Source: a bacterium BMS3Abin08 (GTDB lineage Bacteria; Nitrospirota; Thermodesulfovibrionia; Thermodesulfovibrionales; JdFR-85). Taken from it: 64,000 nt of DNA. The DNA lies in assembly GCA_002897935.1 (NCBI GenBank), contig BDTA01000058.1, positions 5,486-69,485 on the forward strand, given 5' to 3'. The notes under the pieces were generated by a model. It was not told the DNA's origin, did no database searches, and saw only the letters and a program-made list of their open reading frames with translations. Each line of letters begins with the position of its first letter. The first letter of the stretch is position 1. The translations under genes and the position numbers were made by a program. Positions 2,731-58,566 of this stretch are shown here, in pieces.

Positions 2731-3245
2731 GTCATGCCCCGAAAACTCTCGGGGTATCATTTCAGGGATGACAATTGTGACACCGTTTGTTCACGGGAAT
2801 AACGGTTATACAAGGTTTACAGTCTTTAATTACCGAACTAATAATTGCAATTATTATAACTAATTTCCGCCTTAAAACAAAAGATCCCGTAATACTTCAC
2901 ACTTTATTAAATTTGACTCTTTCGTGTTTTAGTTGAAGACAGGCTTAAAATTCAACTTAACATTAACCACAACGCACAATGTCATTCCCCGAAAGCGTTC
3001 GGGGAATCGTTCTTTAAGAAGGATTCCCGAGACCCGAATGCGTTCGGGATTGCGGGAATGACTAATAAACGTCAAGCTCTCCGACCAAAGGTCGGGGCTT
3101 TCGGCAAGGTGCATTGTAAACACGGGTAGAAAAGAGCAGCATGATTGAAGCTGAAGGGTTTTGAATTTTGCATCAGATTCACCGGGAAGGTGAATTGCAA
3201 AATTCCCTCGGAAGCGGGCGGAATGCCCGCTGAGAATGACTGAAG
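2731..3245. repeat. cluster of interspersed hairpin-module repeats (several families)
   Basis: 2731-2772 reads gtcatgccccgaaaactctcggggtatcatttcagggatgac. 2915-3062 is about 90 percent similar to 19026-19190. 3071-3120 (gtcaagctctccgaccaaaggtcggggctttcggcaaggtgcattgtaaa) recurs at 25926, 26271, 28976 (reverse complement), 52265 and 57101. Confidence 0.7.
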
Positions 3246-19025: not shown

Positions 19026-19300
19026 GGCTCTTTCGTGTTTAGTTGAGGACAGGCTTGAAATTCAACTTAACATTAAGCACAACGCACGCAGAGGGCAGAG
19101 TTGTCGTTTTTCCGTCATTCCGTCATTCCGGCTTGTCCGGAATCGTTCTTTAAGAAGGATTCCCGACATGCTTCGCTTGCGGGAATGACAAATGACTATA
19201 ATTTATACACGGACCATAATTAGACAAAGCAATCCAACATTTAGTAATTTATACGAGAATATCGCAGAAACGATTCCGGACAAGCCGGAATGACAGGACA
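19026..19300. repeat. repeat cluster: copy of the 2915-2985 module plus an inverted, one-ended family-A MITE and an isolated ccggacaagccgg hairpin
   Basis: 19097-19222 is the reverse complement of the left 125 bp of 23004-23130. It ends in tttatacacggaccataattag. 19271-19293 reads gattccggacaagccggaatgac. Confidence 0.7.
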
Positions 19301-20174: not shown

Positions 20175-21833
20175 ATGGTAAGCTGGAGGCTTATAGAAAA
20201 AACCGACGGATTGTTACAAAAAGAGAAGGGAACCATATTCAAAGACCCAGGCGGCAGGGTGAATATATGCCTCGTCTATCCCAATACCTACAGGGTGGGC
20301 ATGTCAAACCTCGGTTTCCAGGGAATTTACGGCATCCTCAACAGCAGGCACGATACAGTCTGCGAGAGGGCATTCCTCCCTGACGAGGAAGATCTGACAG
20401 AGTTTGAAAGGACGGGTTCGGAACTCTTCTCCATGGAATCCAGGAGACCCCTTAACCGGTTTGATATCATAGCCTTCTCCGTATCCTTTGAGAACGACTA
20501 TCCTGCCATACCATTTATTTTAGCGCTCTCAAACCTCAAGCCTCTCAGTTCAGAGAGGGATGAGCGCTCTCCCATTGTCATGCTTGGCGGAGTCTGCGCA
20601 AGTTTCAATCCCGAACCCATAGCAGATCTTTTTGACCTCATCTTCATAGGCGAAGCAGACCGGTCGATCCACTCCCTTATAGAGACATTCAAAAAGACCT
20701 CTGTAAGACAGGAGTTCTTAAACGCGATATCTTCATATGCGGGCTTCTATGTCCCGCAGTTCTACAGGTTGGCTTATTCTGAAACCGGGGAACTCAAGGA
20801 AAGAACCCATATCCCTCCCGCCCCTGAACGGATCAGAAAGGTAACCGAAAAAAAGATTGATACCACGATAAGACCTGCTATAGTAACCCCTGAGGCCGAG
20901 TTTTCCGGAATGTATCTCCTTGAGGCGATGAGGGGATGTGTGTGGAGCTGCAGGTTCTGTATTGCCGGGCATATCTATAACCCGCCGAGGTATAAAGAGA
21001 AAGACATCCTCCTTGAGGAGATAGGACAAGCCAGGGAAAAAACTGACAGGATAGGGCTTGTCGGCCCCTCTCTTACAGACTATAAATACTGCGCTGAAGC
21101 CTTAAAGGTTAAAGATGTGGACTTCTCAATAACATCGCTGAGGGCTTCACCCAGGTCGGCGGAAATCCTGTCTCTCATGAAGGGTAAGCGGAGCATATCC
21201 ATTGCTCCCGAGGCCGGCACGGAACACCTGAGAAGGATTATAAACAAAAAGGTCTCCGAAGAAGAGATAATCGAAACCTCCAGAGAAATCCTGGCCTGCG
21301 GCATCTCATCACTCAGACTGTACTTCATGATCGGGCTACCCTATGAAAGAGATGAGGATATCGAGGGTATTATATCTCTGGCAGGGAAGATCCGCTCCTT
21401 ATCTGCCAGGGGGAATATCGTTTTGAGTATCAGCACCTTTGTACCAAAGCCCTTCACCCCCTTTCAGTGGCATCCCATGAGAGATGAAAAGACCGTAAAG
21501 AGACGCCTGAAGATGATAAAATCACAGACCGGCAGGAACAAAGGGATCAGGGTGCTTCATGATGTGGTGAAATACGCATATTTACAGGGCGTATTTTCAA
21601 GGGGGGACAGGCGAATCAGCAAAGCAATTACCGAGATGAGGCAGGCAGGCAGATGGAGAGACATAATGAGAGGGAAAGGACTTAGGATAGAAGACTATCT
21701 CTTCAGACCCCGGCGTTATGATGAACTCCTTCCCTGGGACTTTATTGATATCGGCATTACAAAGGAATATCTCTGGAGCGAGTATGAAAAGGCCCGGTAC
21801 CTATCTCTCCCTGATGCCGGAAAAGAGAGATAA
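20175..21833 (+). CDS. B12-binding-domain radical SAM protein (uncharacterised housekeeping-type family)
   Basis: 552 aa. N-terminal VYPNTYRVGMSNLGFQGIY, radical SAM cluster motif CVWSCRFC, and EAGTEHLRRIINK. Confidence 0.75.
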   Translation: MVSWRLIEKTDGLLQKEKGTIFKDPGGRVNICLVYPNTYRVGMSNLGFQGIYGILNSRHDTVCERAFLPDEEDLTEFERTGSELFSMESRRPLNRFDIIAFSVSFENDYPAIPFILALSNLKPLSSERDERSPIVMLGGVCASFNPEPIADLFDLIFIGEADRSIHSLIETFKKTSVRQEFLNAISSYAGFYVPQFYRLAYSETGELKERTHIPPAPERIRKVTEKKIDTTIRPAIVTPEAEFSGMYLLEAMRGCVWSCRFCIAGHIYNPPRYKEKDILLEEIGQAREKTDRIGLVGPSLTDYKYCAEALKVKDVDFSITSLRASPRSAEILSLMKGKRSISIAPEAGTEHLRRIINKKVSEEEIIETSREILACGISSLRLYFMIGLPYERDEDIEGIISLAGKIRSLSARGNIVLSISTFVPKPFTPFQWHPMRDEKTVKRRLKMIKSQTGRNKGIRVLHDVVKYAYLQGVFSRGDRRISKAITEMRQAGRWRDIMRGKGLRIEDYLFRPRRYDELLPWDFIDIGITKEYLWSEYEKARYLSLPDAGKER

Positions 21834-23000
21834 CCCTATTATAAAGAAAAGCACTATAGAGAGAACCGCATACCTCTGGCTGCCTGTGACGGAAGAAATG
21901 CTCCCGAAGAGTATGGGACCGAGGATAGCCGATGTCTTCCCGGTCAGTGCATAAACTCCAAAGTACTTTCCCTCTTCCCCTTCCGTTATAAACCGGCTGT
22001 AGAACGCCCTTGAGGCTGCCTGAATAACACCCAGTCCCCCGCCTGCTGCTATGGCTATCCCCCAGAAGAGCCCCTTATCATGGATGAAATAGGCGGCGGC
22101 GGTTACAACAATCCAGAAGACCAACAGGCCCCGAATCATCTGCCGGGGTCCCAGTCGGTCGGTCATCCCTGCAAGCAGGAAGGAACCGGCCATGGCTGTA
22201 AACTGGACAAGGAGATAGAGGAAAACCAGTTCTTGCATTGAGAAGGACAGAGTAACCGAGGCATATATGCTTGAAAATATAATTATCGTATTTACCCCAT
22301 CCTTGTAAAAGAAGTAGGAAAGGAGAAACATCCTCGCATCCCTTCTTGCCAGGATCTCCCTCACTGCTGAACAGGTCTCCCTGAGGCCTTTCAGCAGGGC
22401 GATCTTCGGGGAGTATCCGCCACCGCCACCGGAGAGGCTTAAAAAGGCAGGCAGAGAGAAAAGGAAAAAAAAGAGGGATACCATAGGCCATATAAGAGTG
22501 ACCCTCCCTGCCTTCATCAAAAAGAGGGCAAGCAGAAGAGCAAGGATGGACCCTGCATATCCAAGACCGAAACCCCAACCGGAGATCCTTCCCCTGAACT
22601 GGTATGGGACGAGTTCGGGCAGATAAGAATTATAGAATACAAGGGCTCCCTCCATACCGACATTAGCAAGTACCACAAGAAGGACTGTCTCAAGAATCAT
22701 TCCCCTCTCAACAAAGGCAAGAAGGCCCACGGAAATAACGCAGAGAAGGGTATAGAAGAAGAGCATCGCCTTTCTCTTCCCTGCATTGTCTGCGAGCCCT
22801 CCCACAAAAGGAGAAGTTACCGCAACGAAAGCCATGCTCAGAGATATCGCCCTTCCCCACCAGAGGTCTCCCACTAAAGGATCGGGGGCAATACCCTTAA
22901 CAAAATAGACAGGGAATATGACAGCGGCTATTACGGAAGAATAAGAAGAGTTGGCAAAATCATAGAGGCACCAGCTGAGGATCTGTTTTCTGTTTTCCAT
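21801..23000 (-). CDS. MFS transporter (UMF1-like)
   Basis: 399 aa with about 12 hydrophobic helices. Begins SWCLYDFANSSYSSVI, which is typical of the UMF1 subfamily. Its 3' end overlaps the convergent radical SAM gene by 33 nt. Confidence 0.75.
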   Translation of the reverse strand: MENRKQILSWCLYDFANSSYSSVIAAVIFPVYFVKGIAPDPLVGDLWWGRAISLSMAFVAVTSPFVGGLADNAGKRKAMLFFYTLLCVISVGLLAFVERGMILETVLLVVLANVGMEGALVFYNSYLPELVPYQFRGRISGWGFGLGYAGSILALLLALFLMKAGRVTLIWPMVSLFFFLFSLPAFLSLSGGGGGYSPKIALLKGLRETCSAVREILARRDARMFLLSYFFYKDGVNTIIIFSSIYASVTLSFSMQELVFLYLLVQFTAMAGSFLLAGMTDRLGPRQMIRGLLVFWIVVTAAAYFIHDKGLFWGIAIAAGGGLGVIQAASRAFYSRFITEGEEGKYFGVYALTGKTSAILGPILFGSISSVTGSQRYAVLSIVLFFIIGLSLFSGIRER

Positions 23001-23003
23001 TAG

Positions 23004-23180
23004 TTAGTGTCTGTGTATAAATTACAGTCATTTGTCATTCCCGCAAGCGAAGCATGTCGGGAATCCTTCTTAAAGAACGATTCCGGACAAGCCGGAATGA
23101 CGGAAAAACGACAACTGAAAACTCCGGATTTCTGCTTAAGGACTGCTGGAATGACAGATATGGAATTTGAGTTTATACAC
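23004..23180. mobile_element. chimeric MITE-like element (left half family-A type 1, right half type 2)
   Basis: Left end ttagtgtctgtgtataaattacagtc and right end gagtttatacac. The interior combines the cccgcaagcgaagcatgtcggg and ccggacaagccgg hairpins with ctgcttaaggactgctggaatgac. Confidence 0.6.
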
Positions 23181-25925: not shown

Positions 25926-26065
25926 GTCAAGCTCTCCGGCCGAAGGCCGGAGCTTGCCGATGGCATGCCTTACAGCATAGCAATGTAAGGTTTTGATATT
26001 TTATCTTTATATTTGCCTCCGGCACTTCGGTGCTTTCGGCAAAGAACATTGTAAGGAAATTTGAT
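25926..26065 (+). repeat. 140-bp repeat 'C-long' (left copy of an inverted pair)
   Basis: gtcaagctctccggccgaaggccggagcttgcc...cattgtaaggaaatttgat. The reverse complement of 29040-29179 is about 93 percent identical by eye. Confidence 0.8.
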
Positions 26066-26270
26066 TAATTAGAGTCCGTGTATAAACTCGAACAGTTGCC
26101 GTTACTCCGTCATTCCCCGAAAGCATTCGGGAAATTATTCAAAGCGCAAAGCGCATAGCATTAGTTTTTCTGTCATTCCGGCTTGTCCGGAATCTGTCTT
26201 TAAGAAGGATTCCCGACGCGCTTCACTTGCGGGAATGACAAATAACCGTAGTTTACACAGACTCTGCTTA
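26066..26270. mobile_element. family-A MITE-like element inserted into the C repeat
   Basis: Ends TAATTAGAGTCCGTGTATAAAC and GTTTACACAGACTCTGCTTA. The interior carries cccgaaagcattcggg, ccggcttgtccgg and cccgacgcgcttcacttgcggg hairpins. Confidence 0.7.
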
Positions 26271-28221: not shown

Positions 28222-28371
28222 TTCCTCCTATATTTATATCTCCTATATTTATATTCTATCACAATACGGAAGATATTTCAGCACATTTATGAAAAAACAC
28301 GGGAGAGCCTCAGATTCGGGAGAATGGAGGGGAGGAACTTGATTCGGGATTCAGGATGACAAAAACGACCG

Positions 28372-28505
28372 TAATTAGAGTCTGTGTATAAACTGTGTTG
28401 TTGTCATTCCCGTGAAAACGGGAATCCAGTAAAATCAAGCGGTTCTGGATTCCGCATCAAGTGCGGAATGACGGAATAGATGAGTTTATACACAGACACT
28501 AATTA
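28372..28505. mobile_element. family-A MITE-like element, copy 1 of a tandem triple
   Basis: TAATTAGAGTCTGTGTATAAACT ... AGTTTATACACAGACACTAATTA. Internal hairpins are cccgtgaaaacggg and ccgcatcaagtgcgg. Confidence 0.75.
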
Positions 28506-28653
28506 GAGTCTGTGTATAAACTGCCGTTTTTTATTTCTGTCATGTCCCGAACGCTTTCGGGATATCCAGAACTTATTGAAAAGACTGGATTCCGGCTTAA
28601 TGACTGCCGGAATGACAGATAGAAGAATTGAGTTTATACACAGTCTCTACTTA
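28500..28653. mobile_element. family-A MITE-like element, copy 2 (shares the TAATTA junction with copy 1)
   Basis: TAATTAGAGTCTGTGTATAAACT ... GAGTTTATACACAGTCTCTACTTA. Internal hairpins are cccgaacgctttcggg and ccggcttaatgactgccgg. Confidence 0.75.
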
Positions 28654-28798
28654 GTGTCTGTGTAAATTACAGTCACTTGTCATTCCCGCAATCCCGAACG
28701 CATTCGGGAGTCGGGAATCCTTCTCAAAGAACGATTCCGGACAAGCCGGAATGACAGAATAACGACAACTGTTCGACTTTATACACAGACTCTAATTA
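28648..28798. mobile_element. family-A MITE-like element, copy 3
   Basis: TACTTAGTGTCTGTGTAAATTAC ... GACTTTATACACAGACTCTAATTA. The interior matches 45899-46039 and 23004-23110. Confidence 0.75.
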
Positions 28799-28927
28799 GT
28801 TCCTGTTGCTGAAGTTTTAATTGTCACCCTGAATTTATTTCAGGGTCTCGCAACTCTTGTTATTATTAGATTCTGAAACAAATTCAGAATGACAGTTTTT
28901 GGATTTTCGTTTTTCCGCAACAGGAAC
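28799..28927. repeat. 129-bp element with 11-bp perfect terminal inverted repeat gttcctgttgc / gcaacaggaac
   Basis: Termini read directly. The interior contains the gtcaccctgaatttatttcagggtctc and attcagaatgac modules shared with family B. Confidence 0.65.
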
Positions 28928-28975
28928 TATTTAAGGGAAAACAATGCAGGTAAGAGGCTATCTCTTGAGCGGAGA

Positions 28976-29179
28976 TTACAATTGAACCTTGCCGAAAGCC
29001 CGACCTTTGGTCCGGGGATGAAGGCAAGGAATGTAATTAATAAATTTTCCTTACAATGTTCTTTGCCGAAAGCACCGAAGTGCTGGAGGCAAATATAAAG
29101 ATAAAACATCAAAACCTTACATTGCTAAGCTGTAAGGTATGCCATTGGCAAGCTCCGGCCTTTGGTCGGAGAGCTTGAC
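28976..29179 (-). repeat. uninterrupted C-short + TAATTA + C-long repeat (reverse orientation); the empty-site allele
   Basis: The reverse complement reads ...cattgtaaggaaaatttatTAATTAcattccttgccttcatcc..., so the two C halves are contiguous with a single TAATTA at 29034-29039. Confidence 0.8.
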
Positions 29180-29265
29180 AAAATTCCCGGCGCCCTTAGA
29201 AAAAGAGGAAGGGGAAACCGGACGTTTCCCCTTCCTCTCCTATGTTATATTTCACCGGTTACGTT

Positions 29266-32628: not shown

Positions 32629-32782
32629 CAAAATTGATGCACTCGTAAAAAGTCCTGATTGTCACCCTGAACTTGTTTCAGGGTCTCATAACTTCTTGAT
32701 TTATATAGCTTTCCCGAAGTTAATTCGGGATTCAGAATGACAGAATAGGGTATTTCTGATTTTTTACGAGACTGTCAAAATT
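32629..32782. mobile_element. family-B MITE-like element inside the qmoB-qmoC spacer
   Basis: CAAAATT-gatgcactcgtaaaaag ... ttttttacgagactgt-CAAAATT. Near-identical (in reverse orientation, apart from a roughly 50-bp insertion) to 52482-52684. Confidence 0.7.
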
Positions 32783-38636: not shown

Positions 38637-38720
38637 TCTTCATTCCCGCTTGTCTTGTCATTCCAGCTTGTCTGGAATCGTTCCTTGTTTTAAGAAGGAT
38701 CCCGAACGAGTCGGAATGAC
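38637..38720. repeat. hairpin-module repeat between aprA and the cysteine-cluster genes
   Basis: gtcttcattcccgcttgtcttgtcattccagcttgtctggaatcgttccttgttttaagaaggatcccgaacgagtcggaatgac is a degenerate copy of the family-A core. Confidence 0.65.
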
Positions 38721-45898: not shown

Positions 45899-46039
45899 TT
45901 AGAGTCCGTGCATAAATAACAGTCATTTGTCATTCCCGCAAGCGAAGCGAGTCGGGAATCCTTCTTAAAGACAGATTCCGGACAAGCCGGAATGACAAAA
46001 TAACGACAACTGTTCGACTTTATACACAGACTCTAATTA
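45899..46039. mobile_element. family-A MITE-like element
   Basis: ttagagtccgtgcataaataacagtc ... gactttatacacagactctaatta. The interior is near-identical to 28648-28798. Confidence 0.75.
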
Positions 46040-52481: not shown

Positions 52482-52684
52482 CAAAATTGATACACTCGTA
52501 ATAAATCAGAAATACCCTATTCTGTCATTCTGAATCCCGAATTAACTTCGGGAAATCTATATAAATCAAGAAGTTATGAGACCCTGAAACAATACTGAAT
52601 CAAGTTCAGCACATGGTTCAGAGCCTGCCCTGAATTTATTTCAGGGGTGACAATCAGGACTTTTTACGAGTGCATCAAAATTGA
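52482..52684. mobile_element. family-B MITE-like element (long variant)
   Basis: CAAAATT-gatacactcgtaataaa ... ctttttacgagtgcat-CAAAATT. It is the reverse complement of the qmoB-qmoC copy plus an extra cctgaa..ttcagg module of about 50 bp. Confidence 0.7.
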
Positions 52685-52687
52685 TAT

Positions 52688-52827
52688 TCCGGTAAAAAGT
52701 CGTCATTCCCGAGAAAGCGGGAACCCGGAAAGCGTGTAACTATTTGAAATAACTGGATTCCCGTTTCCACGGGAATGACAAAAAACACTTTTTCAGATTT
52801 TTCCGACTTTTTATGAGAATATCAAAA
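52688..52827. mobile_element. family-B-related element abutting the previous one and the pheS stop codon
   Basis: Starts right after the shared CAAAATT (gatattccggtaaaaagtcg) and ends cgactttttatgagaatat-CAAAACT. The interior has cccgagaaagcggg and cccgtttccacggg hairpins. Confidence 0.55.
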
Positions 52828-57010: not shown

Positions 57011-57100
57011 CTCCTTTGTTTCACCACCGTATAAGATCTTGATAGTAACCTCCCGTCATTATCAACCAAACTCCTAAAATGCCAATAACGCACTTAACAA

Positions 57101-57152
57101 GTCAAGCTCTCCGGCCAAAGGTCGGGGCTTGACAATGTAAGGAAAATTTGAT
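57101..57152 (+). repeat. truncated C-long repeat
   Basis: gtcaagctctccggccaaaggtcggggcttgac|aatgtaaggaaaatttgat. The internal roughly 90 bp of the 25926 copy are absent. Confidence 0.7.
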
Positions 57153-57306
57153 TAAATAGAGTCTGTGTATAAAGTCAACAATAGAGCCGTCATTCCCGCG
57201 GTCTGTTGGGCGGGAATCCAGTCTTTTCAGTAACTTCCGGATACCCGACTACAAACTTCGGGCATGACAAAAATAAAAAATGGCAGTTTGTACACAGACT
57301 CTAATT
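57153..57306. mobile_element. family-A MITE-like element (tandem pair, copy 1)
   Basis: TAAATAGAGTCTGTGTATAAAG ... GTTTGTACACAGACTCTAATTA. Hairpins are cccgcggtctgttgggcggg and cccgactacaaacttcggg. Confidence 0.75.
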
Positions 57307-57455
57307 AGAGACTGAGTATAAAGTCAGTCCCTCTGTCTGTCATTCCGGCAGTCCTTAAGCCGGAATCCAGTCTTTTCAATAAGTTCCGGATATCCCGAAA
57401 GCGTTCGGGGCATGACAAAAATAAAAAATGGCAATTTATACACAGACTCTAATTA
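57301..57455. mobile_element. family-A MITE-like element (tandem pair, copy 2; shares the TAATTA junction)
   Basis: TAATTAGAGACTGAGTATAAAG ... ATTTATACACAGACTCTAATTA. It is the reverse complement of the 28500-28653 type. Confidence 0.75.
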
Positions 57456-57511
57456 CATTCCTTGCCTTCATCCCGACCAGAGATCGGGGCTTTCGGCAAG
57501 GTGCATTGTAA
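57456..57511 (+). repeat. C-short repeat
   Basis: cattccttgccttcatcccgaccagagatcggggctttcggcaaggtgcattgtaa. Confidence 0.8.
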
Positions 57512-57774
57512 CAGACTTATAGTACCCTGATGCTGAAGTTGGTTTCTGTAAAGAAGAACAAAAATAAGAGAAATTATACACGATTCACTATATACTTTTC
57601 AAACAGAAGACCTGGTCCCGTCGTTGGAAACAACATAAATTATAAATAATACGGCAAGGAAGGGGCTTTCTTACTATGTGTGTATACCTAAGGATACTTC
57701 TTTTTCAGGTACAAACCTGGGGGAGCAGGAAGTCTTTAAACTCAAGCAAACCCCTCCTCAGCTCCTTATTTTGA

Positions 57775-57897
57775 TAATTCGAGTCTGTGTATAAATTGCC
57801 ATTTTTTATTTTTGTCATACCCGAAGTCTGAAGTCGGGTATCCGGAACTTATTGAAAAGACTGGATTCCGGCTTAAGGACTGCCGGAATGACAGATA
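57775..57897. mobile_element. family-A MITE-like element, right end truncated
   Basis: TAATTCGAGTCTGTGTATAAATTGCC ... ccggcttaaggactgccggaatgacagatagg. No right terminal repeat. Confidence 0.6.
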
Positions 57898-58172
57898 GGA
57901 AACCGCACTGGACGACATTAATCGGGAAGAACTCCATGGATATGATAATTTGGAGGACATCACCGGCGGCGGGGAGTCGTGGCTAACCGTCCCCGGAAAC
58001 AATGGACGTATCCGGACTTTAGAATCTGGATGAGAATGAAAACTCCCCGCTGCAGAGACGGCGGAGTATCGTTAGGTAGAGTTTATTAGATTTAAAAATC
58101 CCCCCTCGCCCCCCTTTGCTAAAGGGGATTATAGGGCTGAGTAGTTACGAAAATTGTATCTTTATTTTCGGT

Positions 58173-58398
58173 GTCATTCCGGCTTGTCCGGAATCCTTCT
58201 ACATTGTTTGGGACCACAAGAAAGATTCCGGACAAGCCGGAATGACGGAAAAACGACTACTGCTCGACTTTATATAGTCGTTTGTCATTCCCGCAAGCGA
58301 AGCACGTCGGGAATCCTTCTACATTGTTCGGGACCACAAGAAAGATTCCGGACAAGCCGGAATGACGGAAAAACGACTACTGCTCGACTTTATACACA
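58173..58398 (+). repeat. about 120-bp tandem duplication (2 units) of a family-A-derived sequence
   Basis: 58189-58276 and 58309-58396 differ at 2 of 88 positions. The first unit carries a ccggcttgtccgg hairpin where the second carries cccgcaagcgaagcacgtcggg. Confidence 0.85.
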
Positions 58399-58566
58399 GG
58401 TAACTACTCAGGTCTCCCCATTTGAAAGGGGGGGTTATAAGGAAACCCCACAGCAGAGACCTATGGCGATGCAAGCTATGATTATGCCGACTCCATCCGT
58501 TAGAAACCGGATGAGAATAAAATCACACCTGTCATAATCTGCAGTATTAATGATATAATTTTCACC

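Follow-up and report, generated by a model that had tools for sequence, protein, structure and literature searches.

MITEs (miniature inverted-repeat transposable elements) that are mobilized in trans by a cognate insertion sequence (IS) are known from several bacteria, and include RUP/IS630-Spn1 of Streptococcus pneumoniae and the Correia elements of Neisseria. Other short repeats, namely repetitive extragenic palindromic (REP) sequences, bacterial interspersed mosaic elements (BIMEs), and REPIN elements, are mobilized by RAYT enzymes. Here we describe a family of elements in a 64,000-nt stretch of DNA (the window, to whose positions all coordinates refer) from a deep-sea sulfate-reducing Nitrospirota bacterium, in which an original prediction made from the letters alone had noted a tandem triple of MITE-like elements at 28372-28798. 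With a probability of roughly 90%, we consider these elements to be MITEs of about 120-145 bp with the 15-17-bp ends of an ISNCY-family IS, inserted at the hexamer TAWWTA with a 6-bp target-site duplication, and their arrays to have arisen by later insertion into the duplications of resident copies. The ISNCY group is a poorly characterized holding class.

The elements resemble RUP and Correia MITEs in many ways. They are 100-155 bp long and non-coding, have terminal inverted repeats (TIRs) and a target-site duplication, occur as many dispersed intergenic copies with strong predicted secondary structure, and have ends in common with a transposase-bearing IS. Correia elements have a 26-bp TIR and a TA duplication (PMC3898611), whereas the TIR described here is a different 15-bp sequence and the duplication spans 6 bp at TAWWTA. 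Unlike in both known families, the partner belongs to ISNCY, not to IS630 or IS5, and the interior is an unrelated pair of hairpins. We searched the literature for the TIR sequence, for Nitrospirae or Thermodesulfovibrio MITEs, and for properties of ISDol1, and retrieved no account of any of these; the MITE family appears to be undescribed, yet of a well-known kind.

The triple was found where it had been predicted, with the layout TAATTA-(122 bp)-TAATTA-(142 bp)-TACTTA-(139 bp)-TAATTA. All three elements start with the 15-bp TIR GAGTCTGTGTATAAA and end with its reverse complement, and their arms carry no more than one mismatch, except for the left arm of element 3, which has a 2-nt deletion. 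When up to two mismatches are allowed, GAGTCTGTGTATAAA matches the window 14 times compared with 0.16 expected, and none of 100 shuffled sequences reached 14. The TIRs occupy 28378-28392 and 28485-28499 in element 1 (one mismatch) and 28506-28520 and 28633-28647 in element 2, and the right TIR of element 3 (28778-28792) is exact. Adjacent copies indeed have only a single hexamer in common, TAATTA at 28500 and the degenerate TACTTA at 28648. The two internal hairpins that had been proposed are likewise real, and are accompanied by a central 4-bp stem and a 3-bp closing stem. In element 1 the hairpins are ATTCCCG..CGGGAAT and ATTCCGCA..TGCGGAAT. Element 2 has the closing stem GTC/GAC (28539-28541 with 28614-28616), hairpin 1 (28542-28565), the central stem (28566-28569 with 28585-28588), and hairpin 2 (28589-28613). 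Across all copies, element size ranges from 105 to 193 bp with no coding capacity for a transposase, and the TIR columns of 27 aligned copies are 91% paired.

A fourth MITE-like element (28799-28927) that was overlooked in the original prediction directly adjoins the triple, and the array is thus longer than had been recognized. Its flanks are TAATTA on the left and TATTTA on the right (28928-28933), and its interior, GTCACCCTGAA..TTCAGGGTC and GATTCTGAA..TTCAGAATGAC, follows the same design as those of the triple. Apart from the same locus in other assemblies, neither the window nor any of the retrieved loci contains a second copy of this element. A lone hairpin unit of the type that it contains lies at 32661-32684.

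We scanned one genome per species (GTDB) for the exact GAGTCTGTGTATAAA 15-mer, which yielded at least 120 stretches, and counted a match as a paired-TIR copy if a second, inverted arm lay 80-200 bp away. Fifty-seven such copies were obtained from the window and 22 Nitrospirota genomes. The hexamers at both ends are identical in 36 of the 57 copies, whereas 2000 shufflings of the right flanks gave 8.5 identical pairs on average and never more than 17. The hexamer varies among copies, with at least 10 kinds that include TAAATA (14), TAATTA (12), and TATTTA (9), as well as duplicated forms such as TAAGTA, TAACTA, TGAATA, TATATA, TTATTA, and others. Base counts over the 114 flanks (T 110, A 100, A/T 106, A/T 104, T 108, A 111) give the consensus TAWWTA, a degenerate palindrome. 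Because the hexamers match within a copy and vary between copies, TAATTA is neither part of the element nor its sole target, and the duplication is longer than TA. The flanking hexamer is a true 6-bp target-site duplication that comprises all six positions, including the variable inner two. Thus, the proposal of a non-autonomous family that repeatedly inserts beside resident copies stands, but the preferred TAATTA target or TA duplication that came with it gives way to a 6-bp duplication at TAWWTA. A MITE of the IS630/Tc1-mariner type was rejected because all six positions, and not only TA, are duplicated.

A paralogous empty site is preserved in a 146-bp host repeat that occurs at 25926-26071 and, inverted, at 29034-29179, with a related copy at about 57085-57510. 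The empty copy (29034-29179) reads ..GGAAAATTTAT-TAATTA-CATTCCTTGCC. Its filled paralogs read ..TTTGAT-TAATTA-(MITE)-TGCTTA-CATTCCTTGCC at 26066 and ..TAAATA-(MITE)-TAATTA-(MITE)-TAATTA-CATTCCTTGCC at 57153, such that two of the three host-repeat copies aligned carry elements at this TAATTA. This comparison of filled and empty sites, made between paralogs, indicates insertion. The host repeat itself is an intergenic sequence of about 150-200 bp with AAGCTCTCCGGCCRAAGGYCGGRGCTTG and CATTGTAAGG motifs, and is also present at 3075-3120; its third copy is split, with one part at about 57085-57152 and the other at 57456-57510.

The partners that had been suggested, from IS630/Tc1, IS5, or RAYT/IS200-605, were not borne out, and the search led to the ISNCY family. 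Long-range TIR pairs in the scanned loci comprised only arrays and one 732-bp deletion derivative, and the partner IS was traced instead from an open reading frame (ORF) beside an unpaired TIR. In a Dissulfurispiraceae metagenome-assembled genome (MAG; L056), an ORF of 451 aa has an exact, unpaired TIR 68 bp upstream. This ORF scores 360.6 bits on the NCBIfam model NF033593 (ISNCY family transposase; cut-off 325) and matches Pfam DDE_Tnp_1 (PF01609) with E = 2.3e-12. The same ORF falls below the cut-offs of the IS5 (123 vs 275), IS1182, IS1634, and IS982 models. Homologs of this transposase that are 74-94% identical are abundant, mostly on contigs of about 1.6-2 kb, and the contigs around seven of them contain 19 complete copies of the IS, which measure 1614-1625 bp, have both TIRs, and encode a DDE-type transposase of 448-453 aa. 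TAWWTA-like hexamers are present at both ends of 18 of these 19 copies, and form an identical pair in seven. There are two TIR variants, GTGTAT and GTCCAT, which belong to separate lineages of the IS; certain MITEs combine an arm of the first variant with an arm of the second. One locus (L028) holds a natural deletion intermediate, an internally deleted IS of 732 bp in which both TIRs remain and the transposase is reduced to its first 43 and last 75 codons. The autonomous partner is an ISNCY-family IS of 1.6 kb that has these TIRs and TAWWTA flanks.

The nearest named relatives of the partner are the ISRm17 and ISRle10 transposases of rhizobial plasmids, to which the partner transposase is 35-37% identical over 92-95% of its length. 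The ends of these elements read ..GTGCCCGTCCATAAACG, and have GTCCATAAA in common with the GAGTCTGTCCATAAA variant of the present TIRs. Like ISRm17 and ISRle10, which are of ISNCY type (NF033593; RefSeq plasmid annotation), the partner IS passes the model cut-off, carries the GTCCATAAA motif, and measures about 1.6 kb. Unlike them, it resides in Nitrospirota and not in Rhizobiaceae, its identity to them is low, and MITE derivatives and a TAWWTA target are described here but not for ISRm17 or ISRle10. Presumably, the ISDol1 group of ISNCY is recorded in ISfinder with duplications of 6-7 bp. A link to RAYT enzymes was considered and dropped: a Y1_Tnp fragment adjoins one IS copy (L148), but there are no GTCAT hairpins nearby.

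The window itself was predicted to lack a transposase gene, and the searches agree. No transposase domain of any kind, and no RAYT or Y1_Tnp gene, was found in the Pfam annotation of window genes at 1-57642 or in ORF scans from 58567; the largest unscanned ORF, in 57643-58566, has 127 aa and overlaps element fragments.

As far as sequence can tell, then, the elements have all the features expected of MITEs, and the partner IS has those of the ISNCY model. In the mechanism we propose, the DDE transposase of the IS would bind the TIRs of a MITE in trans, cut a TAWWTA hexamer with a 6-bp stagger, and insert the MITE there; the hexamer would be duplicated as the cut is repaired. Every insertion would add a fresh TAWWTA at both ends, and neutral intergenic TAWWTA is scarce. 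Later family members would therefore often land in the duplication of a resident copy, giving head-to-tail arrays with one common hexamer.

Arrays of this form are not limited to the window. One elsewhere has three copies joined by TATTTA (L094), another has two joined by TATATA (L128), and two more loci (L013 and L111) hold comparable arrays; at a further two (L132 and L139), a MITE and an IS have one hexamer in common. The recurrence of such junctions in several genomes, also between MITE and IS, is compatible as well with active self-targeting, in which the transposase acts at a resident end, or the target motif reaches into the TIR, and a shortage of sites plays no part. The same can be said of the host-repeat TAATTA, which is filled in two of three copies by different subfamily members. 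We consider self-targeting rather unlikely. For solitary insertions, inspection by eye of the 6 bases that lie outward of each hexamer gave no evident consensus. Moreover, the window has 99 TAWWTA sites, 47 of them intergenic, and about nine of these 47 flank elements. We estimate that one or two of about 10 insertions would be tandem by chance compared with the three observed, which is no significant excess. Because about one-fifth of the intergenic TAWWTA sites lie beside elements, a self-targeting mechanism is possible but is not required.

Several observations weigh against the proposal that an ISNCY-family IS mobilized these MITEs. Flanks are unequal in 12 of the 19 full-length IS copies. 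Some of these cases can be explained by chimeric assembly of a multi-copy IS, demonstrably so in one contig (L147), whose left flank is that of L146 and whose right flank is that of L145; the flanks of other contigs are not verifiable. A tblastn search of the window with the partner transposase gave no match. Ten other assemblies that encode an identical HflX and come from several samples align collinearly with the window, have 99.3-100% identity and no indels, and reveal no presence/absence polymorphism at this locus. Copies in the window differ from one another by 8-33%, and degenerate duplications are seen at several of them; both suggest that the insertions are old. Mobilization in trans and the geometry of the cut are points that we infer from sequence, and the family may or may not still be mobile in this organism. 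Because the ten assemblies show no strain polymorphism, the evidence for insertion consists of the duplications and the paralogous empty site.

The original prediction had also named two findings that would speak against it: a low copy number confined to this region, or identical positions everywhere in related genomes, which would make these conserved structural repeats. The first of these was not seen, since the family is present in at least 22 species representatives of Nitrospirota at different positions; the second holds within the ten assemblies, which come from the same population. Among the matches listed, paired-TIR copies occur only in genomes labeled Nitrospirota or in unclassified 'Bacterium BMS3...'-type genomes, and unpaired chance matches of the 15-mer are scattered over many phyla. 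A Bacteroidales MAG chromosome has a TIR-like 15-mer at a 185-bp period (L060, 50-3190) in an apparently unrelated tandem repeat, and short-period tandem repeats with the 15-mer in a Methanosarcinaceae genome (L019) and in L098 are chance or unrelated matches. Two further copies (L110 4156-4287 and L117 5573-5704) have the same TIRs and duplications with a wholly different interior, the G/C-rich palindrome CCCTCTCCCCTCAAGGGAGAGGG. Thus, the same ends can carry more than one kind of cargo.

The portion of each MITE that matches the IS is limited to 15-18 nt per end, although in one lineage it reaches as much as 27 nt, with 92.6% identity. The interior has a common plan, which consists of a linker, GTC as the 5' half of the closing stem, hairpin 1 (AT-NNN-CCG...CGG-N'N'N'-AT), the central CCAG/CTGG stem, hairpin 2 (ATTCC-SGC...GCS-GGAAT), and GAC as the 3' half of the closing stem. 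This cloverleaf is the minimum-energy fold of elements 1 and 2 as single-stranded DNA, and element 3 folds differently; the folds of all three are highly stable (z = -7.4 to -10.2). In an alignment of 27 copies from the window and 12 other Nitrospirota genomes, 92.3% of the cells pair. Changes on both sides of a pair affect 58 cells compared with 21.6 in shuffles (none of 500 reaches 58) and at most 8 with slid partners, counts made on copies related by descent and on a structure taken from one aligned copy. Covarying pairs make up six of 10 in hairpin 1 and three of eight in hairpin 2, and the motifs GTCAT and ATGAC are invariant. Because the autonomous IS has no such interior, the interior is not required for transposition. 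On these comparisons the interior does not derive from the IS, and compensatory substitutions maintain its stems.

Hairpin 1 and the reverse complement of hairpin 2 both read GTCAT-stem-loop-stem-ATCC, and therefore the interior is an inverted pair of REP-like units. The 64-kb window holds about 33 GTCAT-type units of some eight sequence types compared with four expected. Hairpin pairs without TIRs occur at 2980-3069 and 38657-38720, and also at loci in other genomes (L073, L088, and L110). Like REP and REPIN elements, the interior has two imperfect inverted palindromes of about 22-40 nt with invariant flanks and compensatory stems, and is over-represented. Unlike in those elements, the flank is GTCAT and not GTAG, the paired hairpins differ from each other, and the complete element has TIRs and a duplication.

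Such features could point to fixed intergenic palindromes with a structural or regulatory role, of the REP/BIME, REPIN, or dRS3/NIME (neisserial intergenic mosaic element) kind, which were spread by a RAYT or IS110-like enzyme or by recombination, with the TIRs being incidental. REP-like inverted hairpins with an invariant GTCAT/ATGAC, covarying stems, pairs that lack TIRs, and positions that are identical in all ten assemblies would all fit. We nevertheless regard this explanation as improbable, because TIRs identical to those of a transposase-bearing IS, variable 6-bp duplications, and an empty site are hallmarks of DDE transposition. To our knowledge, REP, REPIN, and NIME elements do not display these hallmarks. 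An origin as IS200/IS605 or RAYT-mobilized REP/REPIN elements was rejected for similar reasons: TIRs and duplications are present, the window has no Y1_Tnp gene, and the hairpins are REP-like in design only. The explanation by fixed palindromes can still fit the interior module alone.

The NIMEs of Neisseria contain dRS3 repeats, 20-bp sequences of the form ATTCCC(N8)GGGAAT that flank RS units (PMC3898611). Like NIMEs, the present elements form modular intergenic repeat arrays with hairpins built on ATTCC(C/G)G...C(G/C)GGAAT, two units being exact instances of the dRS3 pattern. Unlike in NIMEs, most units are spaced differently, the organism is unrelated, and the arrays are bounded by TIRs and duplications. 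The NIME/dRS3 idea was dropped in view of the flanking QmoBC, AhbD, and H+-PPase (pyrophosphatase) genes, which are those of a sulfate reducer, and of only two exact dRS3 matches in 64 kb. We saw nothing that would connect the arrays with a filamentous phage or with an IS110-like integrase. A search of Rfam (at the gathering threshold for the whole window and at E<=1 for 28300-29000) and ARAGORN returned no relevant family, and the sole Rfam matches on a hairpin were to sub-threshold plant miRNA-precursor models. A terminator or promoter role was rejected because just one terminator-like match, a weak one, lies inside an element and the count is within shuffle expectation.

Tentatively, the interior could be a separately selected or propagated structured module, a REP/dRS3-like hairpin pair that folds with the ends into a cloverleaf, although we lean against this. 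The idea draws support from the compensatory stems, from occurrence without TIRs, and from occurrence within at least two other TIR types (28799-28927 and 52683-52823). If correct, different transposon ends would have repeatedly captured one module that is useful to the host or dependent on a second enzyme or, alternatively, the module would give persistence to whichever MITE holds it. In either case the result would be a chimeric MITE/REPIN system. The 141-bp element at 52683-52823 has another TIR (GATATTCCGGTAAAAA / GATATTCTCATAAAAA) enclosing a GTCAT..ATGAC hairpin pair, and may represent a second MITE family with the same interior module. An exact GATATTCTCGTATAAA occurs at 19248-19263.

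Finally, the head-to-tail order and the regular 128-148 bp period of the triple might recall local tandem duplication or unequal recombination of one element. This is very improbable, because the neighbors are mutually only 67-70% identical and have closer relatives elsewhere: for element 2 the stretch 57302-57455, in the opposite orientation, with 91.6% identity, and for element 3 the stretches 45899-46039 and 23001-23117, with 86%. The three also have hairpin units of different types, and are thus separate insertions.

A defined MITE/IS pair, with its TIR, 6-bp TAWWTA target, and ISNCY-family transposase, becomes available for annotating uncultured sulfate-reducing Nitrospirota (Thermodesulfovibrionia-type MAGs), and a clean target consensus together with natural deletion derivatives should be useful for the ISNCY group. 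The covarying interior raises a small question of selection on MITE cargo. The general view of how MITEs work is left unchanged by these findings.

The genes around the array encode HflX, an H+/Na+-pyrophosphatase (PPase), QmoC, a QmoB/HdrA-like protein, the haem b synthase AhbD, and HemE. A PPase terminator (29204-29238) and a promoter-like hflX site (28281-28253) bound the array and both lie outside it, which places the array in a neutral gap. Of the ten other assemblies, six stop within the array or next to it, and three break at TAATTA 28500-28505; the repeats account for such intergenic breaks, which are typical of assembly at repeats. The identical HflX is deposited under 'bacterium BMS3Bbin06 / BMS3Abin08', from MAGs. 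The nearest HflX homologs are 72-75% identical, a genus-level distance, and are labeled Nitrospirota or Thermodesulfovibrionales. Intergenic DNA is not alignable with these relatives and was compared by gap size only. The hflX-ahbD gap is 666 bp here and 40-289 bp in the nearest relatives, and the hemE-MFS (major facilitator superfamily transporter) gap is 275 bp compared with 12-15 bp. The extra DNA in both gaps includes MITEs, which accounts for the expanded junctions. The insertions are therefore lineage-specific, but are not demonstrably recent.

All eleven copies listed in the original prediction were recovered by BLAST and an nhmmer profile built from the 27 copies. This census places seven complete copies, along with about 10 pieces that are partial or composite, at 11 loci (Table 1), with partial copies at 19097, 57775, and 58277 and composites at 23004 and 26066. 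The pair at 57159-57449 occupies the same site of another host-repeat copy as the composite at 26072.

Table 1. Elements, hexamers, and the empty site in the 64,000-nt window
Feature	Position	Strand	Evidence
Left target-site duplication of element 1, TAATTA	28372..28377	.	sequence
MITE element 1, 122 bp	28378..28499	+	nhmmer E=1.7e-20
TAATTA common to elements 1 and 2 (single duplication copy)	28500..28505	.	sequence
MITE element 2, 142 bp	28506..28647	+	nhmmer E=8.8e-40
TACTTA, degenerate duplication common to elements 2 and 3	28648..28653	.	sequence
MITE element 3, 139 bp	28654..28792	+	nhmmer
Right-hand TAATTA duplication of element 3, also the left flank of the fourth element	28793..28798	.	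sequence
Fourth MITE-like element, 129 bp, other 15-bp TIR GTTCCTGTTGCKGAA	28799..28927	+	sequence, folding
Paralogous empty site, single TAATTA in host-repeat copy 29034-29179	29034..29039	.	paralogue alignment
Composite MITE, 193 bp, in TAATTA of host repeat; flanks TAATTA / TGCTTA	26072..26264	+	nhmmer, alignment
Tandem MITE pair (57159-57301, 57308-57449), TAATTA 57302-57307 in common	57159..57449	-	nhmmer, alignment
Solitary full MITE, 132 bp, TAATTA at right flank	45902..46033	+	nhmmer
Composite or truncated MITE between hemE and MFS transporter gene	23007..23180	+	nhmmer
3'-truncated MITE, left TIR and interior hairpin pair	57781..57905	+	nhmmer
Two partial MITE copies (internal duplication), right TIR truncated	58151..58399	+	nhmmer
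5'-truncated MITE, interior hairpin pair and degenerate right TIR	19106..19219	+	nhmmer
Interior hairpin pair without TIRs	2980..3069	+	nhmmer

A 28-bp repeat, ATTCAACTTAACATTAASCACAACGCAC, occurs twice in the window (2950-2977 and 19060-19087; none expected), in both cases just upstream of a hairpin pair that has no left TIR. One possibility is that the repeat marks the end of a different element, which took the place of the TIR. The called ATG of the gene for the MFS transporter, on the minus strand at 21801-23000, adjoins TAGTTA, the left-flank duplication of the element at 23007 (22998-23012). Because TAGTTA abuts this ATG, there is no room for a ribosome-binding site outside the element, and the true start codon or the expression of the gene may be affected by the insertion.

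A 117.7-kb contig, ERZ1742238 NODE_43 (L144), is collinear with window positions 16578-57642, and then diverges wholly after ..CATAAATTA. The breakpoint is at 57642/57643 in the window and at position 2596 in L144. Beyond it, L144 has PIN, MazE, and GAF-GGDEF genes, and the window has MITE fragments, bacA, and ftsK. Either the DNA was truly rearranged at this point, or one of the assemblies contains a chimeric join. Another contig that bears bacA breaks at about 58352, inside the MITE fragments.

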